Positions 18,333 through 39,821 of a DNA stretch of 64,000 nt are shown here, one piece after another; the stretch's first letter is position 1; each line of letters starts with the position of its first letter. Under the pieces are notes generated by a model. It did no database searches. It had not been told where the DNA came from and saw only the letters and a program-made list of their open reading frames with translations. Source of the stretch: Escherichia coli (lineage in GTDB: Bacteria > Pseudomonadota > Gammaproteobacteria > Enterobacterales > Enterobacteriaceae); assembly GCF_036507355.1 (NCBI RefSeq), contig NZ_AP027877.1; one strand, 5' to 3'. Made by a program: the position numbers and the translations under genes.

Positions 18333-19517
18333 ATGAAAAAAGTCATTTTATCTTTGGCTCTGGGCACGTTTGGTTTGGGGATGGCCGAATTTGGCATTAT
18401 GGGCGTGCTCACGGAGCTGGCGCATAACGTAGGAATTTCGATTCCTGCTGCCGGGCATATGATCTCGTATTATGCGCTGGGGGTGGTGGTCGGTGCGCCA
18501 ATAATCGCACTCTTTTCCAGCCGCTACTCACTCAAACATATCTTGTTGTTTCTGGTGGCGTTGTGCGTCATTGGCAACGCCATGTTCACGCTCTCTTCGT
18601 CTTACCTGATGCTTGCCATTGGTCGCCTGGTTTCCGGCTTTCCGCATGGCGCATTTTTTGGCGTCGGAGCGATCGTGTTATCAAAAATTATCAAACCCGG
18701 AAAAGTCACCGCCGCCGTGGCGGGGATGGTTTCCGGGATGACAGTCGCCAATTTGCTGGGCATTCCGCTGGGAACGTATTTAAGTCAGGAATTTAGCTGG
18801 CGTTACACCTTTTTATTGATCGCTGTTTTTAATATTGCGGTGATGGCATCGGTCTATTTTTGGGTGCCGGATATTCGCGACGAGGCGAAAGGAAAGCTGC
18901 GCGAACAATTTCACTTTTTGCGCAGCCCGGCCCCGTGGTTAATTTTCGCCGCCACCATGTTTGGCAACGCAGGTGTGTTTGCCTGGTTCAGCTACGTAAA
19001 GCCATACATGATGTTTATTTCCGGTTTTTCGGAAACGGCGATGACCTTTATTATGATGTTAGTTGGGCTAGGGATGGTGCTGGGAAATATGCTAAGTGGC
19101 AGGATTTCAGGACGTTATTCACCACTGCGCATTGCAGCAGTGACTGACTTTATCATTGTACTGGCACTGCTGATGCTCTTTTTCTGCGGCGGCATGAAAA
19201 CAACGTCGCTTATTTTTGCTTTTATTTGTTGCGCGGGATTATTTGCCCTTTCAGCACCTCTACAAATATTATTACTGCAAAATGCCAAAGGCGGAGAGTT
19301 ATTAGGTGCCGCAGGTGGGCAAATAGCGTTTAACCTCGGTAGCGCCGTCGGCGCATATTGCGGAGGTATGATGCTGACGCTGGGGCTGGCATATAATTAC
19401 GTGACGCTGCCTGCCGCCCTGCTTTCGTTTGCTGCGATGTCATCGTTGCTGCTGTATGGTCGCTATAAGCGCCAGCAAGCGGCGGATAGTCCGGTGCTGG
19501 CGAAACCACTGGGGTAG
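18333..19517 (+). CDS. araJ: MFS transporter AraJ (start taken at MKKVILSLALGTF)
   Basis: 12-TM MFS-type ORF following sbcC, matches AraJ by sequence memory and synteny. Confidence 0.88.
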   Translation: MKKVILSLALGTFGLGMAEFGIMGVLTELAHNVGISIPAAGHMISYYALGVVVGAPIIALFSSRYSLKHILLFLVALCVIGNAMFTLSSSYLMLAIGRLVSGFPHGAFFGVGAIVLSKIIKPGKVTAAVAGMVSGMTVANLLGIPLGTYLSQEFSWRYTFLLIAVFNIAVMASVYFWVPDIRDEAKGKLREQFHFLRSPAPWLIFAATMFGNAGVFAWFSYVKPYMMFISGFSETAMTFIMMLVGLGMVLGNMLSGRISGRYSPLRIAAVTDFIIVLALLMLFFCGGMKTTSLIFAFICCAGLFALSAPLQILLLQNAKGGELLGAAGGQIAFNLGSAVGAYCGGMMLTLGLAYNYVTLPAALLSFAAMSSLLLYGRYKRQQAADSPVLAKPLG

Positions 19518-21681: not shown

Positions 21682-22137
21682 TTATTCGCTACGGCGGGCA
21701 ATAATTTTTAGCGCAGCAATATTATGCGTTTTACGCCGTAACTGATCGAATCGTCTCATCCCTATTCGCCTGTCAGCAGCACGCAGAATATTCACTAACC
21801 CCCATTTATCGCTGGTAAATTGTTTTGTTAACAGCTCCGCTTTTGGGGTATCAATATATTCACGCAATAAATCAGAAATTGAACAAATATCCGTCAGGTA
21901 AGGATACCAGCAAGTTTCACCGTGAAAATTACGCACTCCACCGTTACCTGCAATAAAGTCTTTCGGGTAATCCCAGATCACGTTTTTATCCAACGTGATC
22001 CAATAACGCGGTAAATCGGTGCTTCCACCATTTTGGCTGCGCATGGGATAACGGGTACAGTGAATTTGCAGGTTGATCGTTGGCGTCAGTAAGTCATAGA
22101 TCTCCCGCTGTAACTTGCTCCATGGACGTTGTGTCAT
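21682..22137 (-). CDS. hypothetical protein, 151 aa, distal gene of an AT-rich accessory operon (possibly the counterpart of K-12 ykiA, unverified)
   Basis: Intact ORF; start ATG overlaps the stop of the upstream 169-aa ORF by 4 nt (ATGA), indicating translational coupling; below-average GC. Confidence 0.6.
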   Translation of the reverse strand: MTQRPWSKLQREIYDLLTPTINLQIHCTRYPMRSQNGGSTDLPRYWITLDKNVIWDYPKDFIAGNGGVRNFHGETCWYPYLTDICSISDLLREYIDTPKAELLTKQFTSDKWGLVNILRAADRRIGMRRFDQLRRKTHNIAALKIIARRSE

Positions 22138-22643
22138 TGTTTTTCCTCAAGCCGGTGACGCGCTTCACTGCGAATTTTCCGCGTTGCCCCGGTTTTCACT
22201 AAATCACGTAACAGCGAAAGATCGGGTTGTTCGACAAATAAGAGTAATGATGGATCCTCTTTTAACCACGCCGTTTTCACATCGGCAGCCAGCTGTGGAT
22301 TATTAATAGCCAGCGACCGATCCTGAGGCTCAGTCAATGTCGTTAACAACGACGCCGGGGTATGTGCGTTGCGTAATGCCGTTTGGCGCAAATGATCATT
22401 GCGACTTTGCAGCAATGCACGCCACCATTCATCATCTGATTTATCTTTTATCGTCGCCAGTTCCGCAAAAATATCGCTATCCTCACGGTTCCAGCGGTGT
22501 AATCCTCTTTCACTTTGCCTACGGGTGCTATTTTTCATACTGACAACAGACAGCGCCCAGTCAGAGTTGAAGCGATACTGTTGATCGAGTTTGTTGATAA
22601 TTCCGGAAGATAAATCTTTATTATCAAATAATTGGTTACGCAT
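22134..22643 (-). CDS. hypothetical repeat-containing protein, 169-aa frame; probably the C-terminal part of the upstream large ORF after a frameshift
   Basis: Frame overlaps the 3' 109 nt of ORF 22535-24154; product continues the same Leu/Arg-rich helical repeat character (HTPASLLTTLTEPQDRSLAINNPQLAADV...). Confidence 0.5.
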   Translation of the reverse strand: MRNQLFDNKDLSSGIINKLDQQYRFNSDWALSVVSMKNSTRRQSERGLHRWNREDSDIFAELATIKDKSDDEWWRALLQSRNDHLRQTALRNAHTPASLLTTLTEPQDRSLAINNPQLAADVKTAWLKEDPSLLLFVEQPDLSLLRDLVKTGATRKIRSEARHRLEEKQ

Positions 22644-24201
22644 TCGATAGCGGTATTCAGCGGGTAAATCAACCGTAAATCAATGGCATTATTTAACATC
22701 TCTTCGTCAACAACACCATTATCAATCAGCGCCAGCTGTACTTCGTAGGCTTGCTCTTGATCTTCTTGCCGTTTGCTCATCATTAAATTTAATGTGCGTT
22801 GCCATAACTGTTTCTTATATTCCAGCGGCAATAATTTATCGCGTGCCAGCTCATCCCAGACGGTGGGAACATCATGCTGAGTCAGTAGATAACTAATTAC
22901 TTCCCTCGATGTCAGATAACGCGCACCTTCGCGCAAATTGTGCACATCTTCTTTTGCCAGAGACAGTTGACGCATCTCCGGCAACGCTATCAATAACGCC
23001 TTTACGATATTTTTATTTTCTTTATTATCCAGATACATTTGTTCTGCGATACGTTCAATATCCTCTGTACGCAGGGTTGCTGACAGTTGGGTAATTTTTA
23101 ATTCAGTAAGCGTCCGGGCTAATGCTTCACGAACTTTCAGTGATTTATCTTTACTCAACATCACTGCTTGTTGTGCGGTTAAATCTGCTCCGGTAATTCT
23201 TTCACGTAACTCCGGGTCTTCGTTATTTATCAACTCATCGGCCACTGCAGTCGGAACCAGCCAGGCGTAATCGTAATGGCTGAGTAATGTCTTGCGTACA
23301 CTGAGAAAGGGGCTATGACTTAACGACGCAACAATATCTGGAGAAAGATTATCCTGTCTGGCCTGCTCCAGCTGTACGCTCTCGACGGGTACAGACATTA
23401 ATTTTTTATTCACATCGGCGGAAATATTACTGTTTTTAACCAGCCCTCTGGCAACAGCCTCATCTTTAATTAATTCATCGGTAAGCAAATGCATCTGTTG
23501 AGCGGGCCAGGACTGCGCCATCGATTCACGCGTCTGGTCATCGGGGTGCTGTAACAGTTGCAGCATAACGGCGGGTGATAAACTCTCTGTATGAGTCAGA
23601 AAACGCGCCACCAGTGGATCTTGATGCTTTATTTTATTCGCTGGGAAATTATCGAGTTTCCCCGTTTCAATCCATTTTAATTTCTCATTAATTTCAGGAG
23701 CGGCTTTATCTCGAAAAAGCGGTAAACCCTGAACGATGTTGTCTGCGACGCTATCATAGTCAGGATACGCATTGGAAATGTTATCGGTTTCGATTTCAGT
23801 GTGATCATAAAGATCGGCAGTCACCAGTGAATAGGATTTTTGAATATTCTCATCCCAGTTATATCCTTCACCACTTCCATCTTCATTGATATAAAATTCA
23901 GCTTTAATGACTTCAAATTGCGTTGCTTTATCGGAAACAATAATGCCTCGCGCACTAATTCCCTTCATCACTTCAAAGTTATGATCATTGTAATCAGCAT
24001 AAACTAAACCTTTCGCTGTCATCTGTCCTTTGACATACGCGAAATCATGATTAATAAAGTTATCGACAATAACATTACCTAATACAATCAGATGACCATT
24101 ACCTGACAGATAATCATCATAATCGCCGGAAATCGTTAAATTACCGTTCACCACCAGTTTATTTTGATTGCTGAAGTTAGCGGGTAATGATAGGTCACCA
24201 T
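22535..24201 (-). pseudogene. large repeat-rich (HEAT/LRV-like helical repeats, by-eye call) protein gene, N-terminally truncated by IS1 and probably frameshifted near 22680
   Basis: Reading frame is open upstream of the annotated GTG (24154) straight into the IS1 end at 24202 with no start codon; repeated motifs of type LSPDIVASLSHSPFLSVRKTL / DPELRERITGADLTAQQAVMLSKDKSLKVREALA; AT-rich. Confidence 0.6.
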
Positions 24202-24216
24202 GGTAATGACTCCAAC

Positions 24217-24720
24217 TTATTGATAGTGTTTTATGTTCAGATAATGCCCGATGACTTTGTCATGCAGCTCCACCGATTTTGAGAACGACAGCGACTTCCG
24301 TCCCAGCCGTGCCAGGTGCTGCCTCAGATTCAGGTTATGCCGCTCAATTCGCTGCGTATATCGCTTGCTGATTACGTGCAGCTTTCCCTTCAGGCGGGAT
24401 TCATACAGCGGCCAGCCATCCGTCATCCATATCACCACGTCAAAGGGTGACAGCAGGCTCATAAGACGCCCCAGCGTCGCCATCGTGCGTTCACCGAATA
24501 CGTGCGCAACAACCGTCTTCCGGAGCCTGTCATACGCGTAAAACAGCCAGCGCTGGCGCGATTTAGCCCCGACATAGCCCCACTGTTCGTCCATTTCCGC
24601 GCAGACGATGACGTCACTGCCCGGCTGTATGCGCGAGGTTACCGACTGCGGCCTGAGTTTTTTAAGTGACGTAAAATCGTGTTGAGGCCAACGCCCATAA
24701 TGCGGGCTGTTGCCCGGCAT
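24217..24720 (-). CDS. insB: IS1 transposase InsB (expressed as InsAB' by -1 frameshift)
   Basis: 167-aa [19 protein letters not shown]..., recognised IS1 InsB. Confidence 0.93.
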
Positions 24721-24914
24721 CCAACGCCATTCATGGCCATATCAATGATTTTCTGGTGCGTACCGGGTTGAGAAGCGGTGTAAGTGAACTGCAGTTGCCA
24801 TGTTTTACGGCAGTGAGAGCAGAGATAGCGCTGATGTCCGGCGGTGCTTTTGCCGTTACGCACCACCCCGTCAGTAGCTGAACAGGAGGGACAGCTGATA
24901 GAAACAGAAGCCAC
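24639..24914 (-). CDS. insA: IS1 protein InsA
   Basis: 91-aa [46 protein letters not shown]..., recognised IS1 InsA. Confidence 0.95.
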
Positions 24915-25141
24915 TGGAGCACCTCAAAAACACCATCATACACTAAATCAGTAAGTTGGCAGCATCACCCAGATGACCAATATATTAATTCTATTCATAA
25001 TCTTCAATGATATTTATATCAACCTTGATGAATTATGAATATATCGGAAATTGAAAAAATCGCAGCAAAGGAAATATTATTATGGGTTAAAGAGATGATA
25101 TTTCAGAAAAATGCCCTCCCGTTCAAGGGGAAGGCGAGGAA

Positions 25142-38722: not shown

Positions 38723-38920
38723 AATTCTATTTTGCCAGGCTAACCAGTAAAAAGCGTCTCGCCAGAGTTGATTTTGTTCAATAAGCGTAATGGTTTGTTT
38801 GGCTGGTAGATGATATCCCGTACAATTTCCTTCTGATATTAATTTGTATGGTATATCGTTTTTCAGGTGATGCTGCCAACTTACTGATTTAGTGTATGAT
38901 GGTGTTTTTGAGGTGCTCCA

Positions 38921-39196
38921 GTGGCTTCTGTTTCTATCAGCTGTCCCTCCTGTTCAGCTACTGACGGGGTGGTGCGTAACGGCAAAAGCACCGCCGGACA
39001 TCAGCGCTATCTCTGCTCTCACTGCCGTAAAACATGGCAACTGCAGTTCACTTACACCGCTTCTCAACCCGGTACGCACCAGAAAATCATTGATATGGCC
39101 ATGAATGGCGTTGGATGCCGGGCAACAGCCCGCATTATGGGCGTTGGCCTCAACACGATTTTACGTCACTTAAAAAACTCAGGCCGCAGTCGGTAA
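38921..39196 (+). CDS. insA: IS1 protein InsA
   Basis: Identical to the InsA of the other IS1 copy. Confidence 0.95.
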
Positions 39197-39618
39197 CCTC
39201 GCGCATACAGCCGGGCAGTGACGTCATCGTCTGCGCGGAAATGGACGAACAGTGGGGCTATGTCGGGGCTAAATCGCGCCAGCGCTGGCTGTTTTACGCG
39301 TATGACAGGCTCCGGAAGACGGTTGTTGCGCACGTATTCGGTGAACGCACGATGGCGACGCTGGGGCGTCTTATGAGCCTGCTGTCACCCTTTGACGTGG
39401 TGATATGGATGACGGATGGCTGGCCGCTGTATGAATCCCGCCTGAAGGGAAAGCTGCACGTAATCAGCAAGCGATATACGCAGCGAATTGAGCGGCATAA
39501 CCTGAATCTGAGGCAGCACCTGGCACGGCTGGGACGGAAGTCGCTGTCGTTCTCAAAATCGGTGGAGCTGCATGACAAAGTCATCGGGCATTATCTGAAC
39601 ATAAAACACTATCAATAA
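39115..39618 (+). CDS. insB: IS1 transposase InsB
   Basis: Identical to the InsB of the other IS1 copy. Confidence 0.93.
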
Positions 39619-39821
39619 GTTGGAGTCATTACCCGTTTTTCATTAAACCATCAGCCAGCCCCATAATATAAGGAGCCTGGGTAATACCGATAAGTACGTT
39701 TTCTTCTCTACGCAGAGAGATAACGCCCTCTAAAATAACGAAAGTATCTTCGCTATTGACATCACTGGAAAATATAACTTGCTTTTCATTATTAAACTCG
39801 AAGCGCGTACCGTATCTGGAC

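Follow-up and report, generated by a model that had tools for sequence, protein, structure and literature searches.

How did a complete copy of IS1 come to lie in an Escherichia coli chromosome between two flanks that do not match? The stretch of DNA analyzed here (64,000 nucleotides, referred to below as the window) carries two identical IS1 copies, and a reading made from the letters alone had taken the missing target-site duplication of one of them as the signature of an adjacent deletion or of recombination between IS copies. The window is of the E. coli/Shigella chromosome type, with the gene order sbcC-araJ-mak-rdgC-SF0329-DUF2773-(IS1)-ppnP-aroM-yaiA-aroL-yaiI-proC-adrA-psiF-phoA-iraP-ddlA-yaiZ-yaiY-yaiW-sbmA-ampH-(IS1 in iprA). 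The two elements and the flanks of the first are as follows.

24202..24969, minus strand, complete IS1 of 768 bp, 100% identical to the copy at 38866-39633
24202-24224, IS1 terminal repeat IRR
24947-24969, IS1 terminal repeat IRL
24639..24914, minus strand, insA, 91 codons with a GTG start, matching positions 1-81 of NCBIfam profile NF033558
24217..24720, minus strand, insB' reading frame, matching positions 75-199 of NF033558
24657-24663, -1 frameshift motif A6C, reading GTTTTTT on the plus strand
24193..24201, left flank GGTCACCAT, the same 9 bp that are duplicated around the IS1 of E. coli 14EC033
24970..24978, right flank CAGATGACC, 182 bp from the left flank in genomes with an empty site
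38866..39633, plus strand, second IS1, inside iprA (yaiV), inverted relative to the first

Elements of the IS1 family are about 768 bp long and end in imperfect terminal inverted repeats of about 23 bp. The copy at 24202-24969 conforms to the family in length, in its terminal repeats (GGTAATGACTCCAACTTA... and GGTGATGCTGCCAACTTA..., both intact and pairing as inverted repeats) and in its frameshifted insA/insB' arrangement, in which both frames are open, the A6C motif lies at canonical position 307 and both products match the "IS1 family transposase" profile NF033558. The element is thus complete, as had been claimed, and is predicted from its sequence to be fully functional. The one family trait that it lacks is the 9-bp (occasionally 8-bp) target-site duplication.

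The mismatch of the flanks held up on re-examination, since GGTCACCAT and CAGATGACC agree at 0 of 9 positions. The sequence-only reading had considered only the canonical ends of the element and had named in advance, as the finding that would overturn it, a repeat emerging once the boundaries were shifted. We therefore moved the two boundaries separately, by as much as 6 bp in either direction, and sought repeats of 5-12 bp; no direct repeat around the element was found within these limits, the sole word returned being TCACC, a trivial 5-mer with one of its copies inside the IS end. The two 30-bp flanks share words of at most 4 bp. Two controls frame this result. The second IS1 in the window, as had also been stated, is bordered on both sides by a perfect 9-bp duplication (CGTTTTTCA, at 38857-38865 and 39634-39642), and because that copy is identical to the first, the missing duplication is a trait of the insertion history and not of the element. 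In addition, all five simple IS1 insertions found in the same gene in other genomes have a perfect 9-bp duplication (5/5), indicating that the absence is a real exception and not noise. As a separate observation, the outermost 5 bases of the two flanks (24193-24197 and 24974-24978) form an inverted pair, GGTCA...TGACC, that loosely resembles the IS1 termini GGTAA/GGTGA, a likeness noticed post hoc and expected by chance about once in 1000.

Both flanks belong to a single gene, with an intact coding sequence of 2280 nt and a 759-aa, secreted-looking product of the DUF2773 family. This gene had been described as encoding a repeat protein, a label that could not be established, as Pfam assigns only a C-terminal DUF2773 domain and the match to HEAT repeats is not significant (E=8.5). 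What the window retains of the gene, and its downstream neighbor, are listed here.

24970..24998, minus strand, surviving first 29 nt of the DUF2773-family gene (ATG at 24996-24998), identical to positions 3886-3914 of the locus from E. coli EC1515
22134..24201, minus strand, 3' part of the same gene, from nt 212 of the coding sequence to the stop, with a 1-nt frameshift
21682..22137, minus strand, SF0329-family gene, overlapping the DUF2773 stop and lying downstream of IS1 in the same transcriptional direction

Comparison with genomes that have no IS1 at this site, which had been proposed as the way to define what was lost, showed that 182 bp have been deleted beside the element. In the empty-site genome EC1515, GGTCACCAT occupies 3695-3703 and CAGATGACC occupies 3886-3894 of the retrieved locus, and the DNA missing from the window corresponds to 3704-3885 (19140-19321 in locus L025). 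The same 182 bp are present in three near-identical relatives of the window (L025, L057 and L061, described below). The window therefore lacks nt 30-211 of the coding sequence, and the earlier statement that the gene had lost its 5' end stands for this segment only; to the right of IS1 the window keeps the start codon with the rest of the first 29 nt, as well as the intergenic region upstream, and the gene would already have been split by the insertion, so that the deletion is without evident functional consequence.

The deletion begins at the last base of an intact IS1 end, IRL being whole up to ...GCATCACC and followed immediately by CAGATGACC, and the junction has zero microhomology (CACC/GGTC at the start of the deleted segment versus CATA/CAGA at its end). 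The lost DNA was thus contiguous with the end of a complete IS, and the endpoint falls on the terminal nucleotide, as in known IS-adjacent deletions. Because the endpoint is at the last IS1 nucleotide and microhomology is absent, the joint points to transposase chemistry rather than to slippage or random breakage. This deletion junction occurs in none of 5426 complete E. coli genomes and in none of the JGI metagenome contigs. The left IS1 junction of the window was absent from 100,044 species-representative genomes.

Missing duplications have been attributed to adjacent deletion, to recombination between IS copies or to decay of the duplication (PMC11708052). Among these generic causes, recombination with a distant IS1, giving a large deletion or an inversion, might be suggested by the identical, inverted copy 13.9 kb away, and the sequence-only reading had left inter-IS recombination open alongside adjacent deletion. 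The two flanks are, however, ancestral neighbors, 182 bp apart in the same gene, and synteny runs on to both sides; the 13.9-kb interval from one window copy to the other is one piece, colinear with E. coli genomes and in the same orientation as its flanks; and the second copy keeps its duplication. These observations exclude recombination with a distant IS1, and with it an inversion or other exchange between the two window copies, leaving adjacent deletion as the part of the earlier proposal that is supported. Decay is not compatible with flanks that share no position, and a deletion that preceded the insertion would have left the later insertion to make a duplication of its own. We regard this whole group of explanations as extremely unlikely.

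An error of assembly deserves mention, since IS copies are the classic place for sequence collapse, and either a tandem IS1-182 bp-IS1 arrangement or an IS1 with its duplication could have been mis-assembled; the few private indels that separate the window from near-identical relatives could hint at an imperfect consensus. Against this, two identical 768-bp IS1 copies are both contained in one contiguous 64-kb sequence, which implies a long-read or finished assembly, and collapse would remove unique sequence only if a tandem IS1 pair had existed, that is, the intermediate of a recombination route discussed below. An artefact is therefore very unlikely.

The left junction of the window is found in one of the 5426 complete E. 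coli genomes, that of 14EC033, in which IS1 sits at precisely the same nucleotide and points the same way, but with a perfect GGTCACCAT duplication (3695-3703 and 4472-4480 of the retrieved locus) and with the 182 bp intact and following its IS1. Relative to 14EC033 the window has 191 bp fewer, equal to one copy of GGTCACCAT plus the 182 bp, and this allele shows the likely precursor state of the window. We considered whether the 14EC033 element represents the same ancestral insertion and rejected this, given that the flanks are about 0.6% diverged, that 8 of 768 nt separate the two IS1 sequences and that the nearest relatives of the window have an empty site. These comparisons indicate that IS1 has targeted GGTCACCAT (nt 212-220 of the coding sequence) on two independent occasions, with nucleotide and orientation the same each time.

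The relatives of the window, a handful of loci retrieved by exact-protein look-up with lineage-specific SbcC and PsiF alleles, date these events. Compared with the window, locus L025 (GCA_021425525.1) shows 3 substitutions and 2 indels across 19.1 kb of the left side and no difference across 3.8 kb of the right side, and locus L057 (ERR3330519) shows 2 substitutions across 11.4 kb. In both loci the site is empty and the 182 bp and the gene are intact, and the empty site is also present in many E. coli genomes. In addition, the 3' part of the gene in the window has lost a single A between 22674 and 22675, a private deletion that causes the frameshift and is absent from relatives L025 and L026. 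Given the empty site and intact gene in L025 and L057, the insertion, the deletion and the frameshift all appear to be recent and private to the branch of the window. Identity to the window reaches only 99.1-99.4% in the best-matching complete E. coli genomes, and the lineage, possibly Shigella or enteroinvasive E. coli, is therefore not represented among the 5426. By exact-protein look-up, the SF0329, RdgC, AdrA, ProC and PhoA alleles of the window proved to be widespread, and its YaiW allele and truncated 539-aa open reading frame had no recorded match. A contig from a human-gut metagenome (L012, ERR636410, 784 bp) encodes the same 169-aa open reading frame product that the frameshift creates in the window.

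One further relative, GCA_905398585.1 (L026/L061), has an IS1 of its own 90 bp further into the gene, in the same orientation (at the position of window 24103-24111). This element was considered as a possible second "nibbling" deletion and rejected as such, since its CTGACAGAT duplication in L061 is perfect and the 182 bp are intact; it is an independent simple insertion. Such an insertion in a near-identical relative indicates that IS1 is actively transposing in the clone to which the window belongs.

Several other differences were observed among these genomes. Compared with four near-identical relatives (L025-L028), the window has a private 24-bp deletion after 5442, in a 481-aa gene without a Pfam match that adjoins malZ, and private substitutions at 7899 and 11591. 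The 176-kb contig of L027 (GCA_047852605.1) ends within the 3' part of the DUF2773-family gene (equivalent to window 22237) with no IS at its end, and this may reflect a further repeat insertion or rearrangement in the gene. For positions 39634-64000, the best E. coli matches fall into three pieces that cover only 95%, and their span exceeds that of the window by about 2.5 kb, with an IS3-family element and autotransporter genes annotated there; this points to additional differences in structure near the yaiT-type autotransporter region.

Taken with the junction structure, the 14EC033 allele leads us to favor an ordinary IS1 insertion followed by a transposase-mediated adjacent deletion through intramolecular transposition, to which we assign a probability of about two in three. 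In the first step, IS1 would have entered the dispensable DUF2773-family gene within its 5' part, most likely at GGTCACCAT, creating a 9-bp duplication; that GGTCACCAT is a genuine IS1 target is supported by its duplication in 14EC033. In the second, whose outcome is seen directly in the window, transposase would have joined the IRL end to CAGATGACC, 182 bp away on the same molecule, and the 191 bp comprising the second copy of GGTCACCAT and the 182 bp would have been lost on a non-replicating circle. IS1 would thereby be left intact with one old and one new flank, hence with no duplication. The mirror order, insertion at CAGATGACC followed by attack of the IRR end on GGTCACCAT, would give the same product, and the order of the steps and the direction of the deletion are indistinguishable from that product; presumably, CAGATGACC served as the 9-bp target in the intramolecular step or, in the reverse order, in the original insertion. 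The precursor-like allele is known only from the unrelated 14EC033, and among the handful of clone relatives retrieved, all of which have an empty site or a different insertion, none carries IS1 with an intact duplication at this site.

Adjacent deletions promoted by IS1 reportedly go back to Reif and Saedler (1975), and Turlan and Chandler (1995) are said to have described replicative deletions. Like those, the window combines an intact IS1, a deletion that starts at the IS end, one original flank and no duplication. Nothing essential differs from the classical cases; the window example is small (182 bp plus the 9-bp copy) and comes from a natural isolate, and no precursor was seen in its own lineage. 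Insertion followed by adjacent deletion also accounts for all 14 of the 14 IS-associated deletions re-examined in the LTEE, where, as in the window, an IS without duplication marks the deletion junction (PMC11708052). The LTEE cases differ in involving IS150 and large deletions with the intermediate captured in a time series, whereas the window involves IS1 and 182 bp and its intermediate is deduced only from an unrelated strain. The event is of a known kind and nothing new, being a textbook consequence of IS1 activity.

The remaining simple insertions in the gene, given by position in the coding sequence, bear on whether a second element might once have been present.

nt 302-310, IS1 in GCA_905398585.1, duplication CTGACAGAT, same orientation as the window IS1
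nt 349-357, IS1 in 100416, duplication AAAGTTATC, same orientation as the window IS1
nt 536-544, IS1 in GDSC2227PM, duplication GAAGTGGTG, orientation opposite to the window IS1
nt 1128-1136, IS1 in JX21CE8, duplication TGGCTGAGT, same orientation as the window IS1

These insertions and that of 14EC033 share with the window the element and the gene but, unlike the window, retain a perfect 9-bp duplication, with no gene sequence missing to either side. There are six independent IS1 hits in the DUF2773-family gene, at least four of the six within nt 212-544, which suggests a local IS1 hotspot in that interval. A gene this hot for IS1 raises the prior for a second nearby insertion, a counterpoint to insertion followed by adjacent deletion. 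IS1 could have inserted at both GGTCACCAT and CAGATGACC, in direct orientation and 182 bp apart, with a duplication around each copy, and RecA-type recombination between the two could then have deleted one copy and the intervening DNA. Recombination between direct IS copies leaves one IS with two unrelated flanks, a product identical in sequence to that of an adjacent deletion; recombination between IS copies is a recognized cause of missing duplications (PMC11708052). The repeated targeting of the 5' part of the gene (nt 212-220 twice, 302-310, 349-357 and 536-544), once in a near-identical relative only 90 bp off and in the same orientation, also speaks in its favor. Such a history nevertheless requires a second IS1 at CAGATGACC, and a synthetic junction with IS1 abutting CAGATGACC on its left (CAGATGACC-IRR) was found in none of the 5426 complete E. 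coli genomes. Moreover, two insertions and a recombination event would have to be fitted into a lineage only 2-3 SNPs per 10-20 kb from empty-site relatives, and we consider this history unlikely.

A shorter path would be the insertion of IS1 and the loss of 182 bp in one reaction, either by uncoupled strand transfer, with the two ends joined 191 bp apart, or by capture of the IS at a break. We know of no one-step mechanism documented for IS1 that omits the duplication. The clone relatives retrieved include no intermediate, the branch is very short, and the GGTCA...TGACC pair, with its post hoc odds of about 1 in 1000, would fit two equivalent half-sites. The left junction is nonetheless identical to that of the ordinary, duplication-forming insertion in 14EC033, as a normal first step predicts. 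Insertions without duplication have been proposed to be linked to rearrangements, yet every traceable natural case in the same study proceeded in two steps (PMC11708052). A single reaction thus seems quite improbable, and insertion followed by adjacent deletion remains the preferred account.

The setting of the insertion is that of an accessory gene pair, in that most of the 7-kb DUF2773-SF0329 stretch is present in only 443 of the 5426 complete E. coli genomes; many of the other loci retrieved contain only remnants of it. The G+C content of the DUF2773-family gene is 38-48%, compared with 50-56% in its surroundings, and an AT-rich gene of this kind fits the known regional preference of IS1. 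The site of the second window copy offers a parallel observation: in 31 complete E. coli genomes an IS1 end lies in iprA within a few hundred bp of the 38866-39633 site, with a junction that is not identical and matches in two pieces spanning 285-386 bp, making iprA another gene recurrently targeted by IS1.

For annotation, the locus is best described as a DUF2773-family pseudogene split by IS1, with a 182-bp IS1-adjacent deletion and a separate frameshift, and not as a rearrangement breakpoint; beyond annotation the event itself matters little. It does provide a clean natural example of how an IS copy without a duplication originates, with the empty allele, the allele occupied with a duplication and the deleted allele all available. 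Were the insertion and deletion to prove a single reaction, GGTCACCAT would be an IS1 hotspot determined by its sequence and hit independently, at one nucleotide and in one orientation, in two unrelated lineages, and the window would illustrate in nature the non-canonical IS movement that PMC11708052 proposes. The repeated IS1 targeting of the 5' third of the gene lends itself to typing, or can be a small data point on the target preference of IS1.
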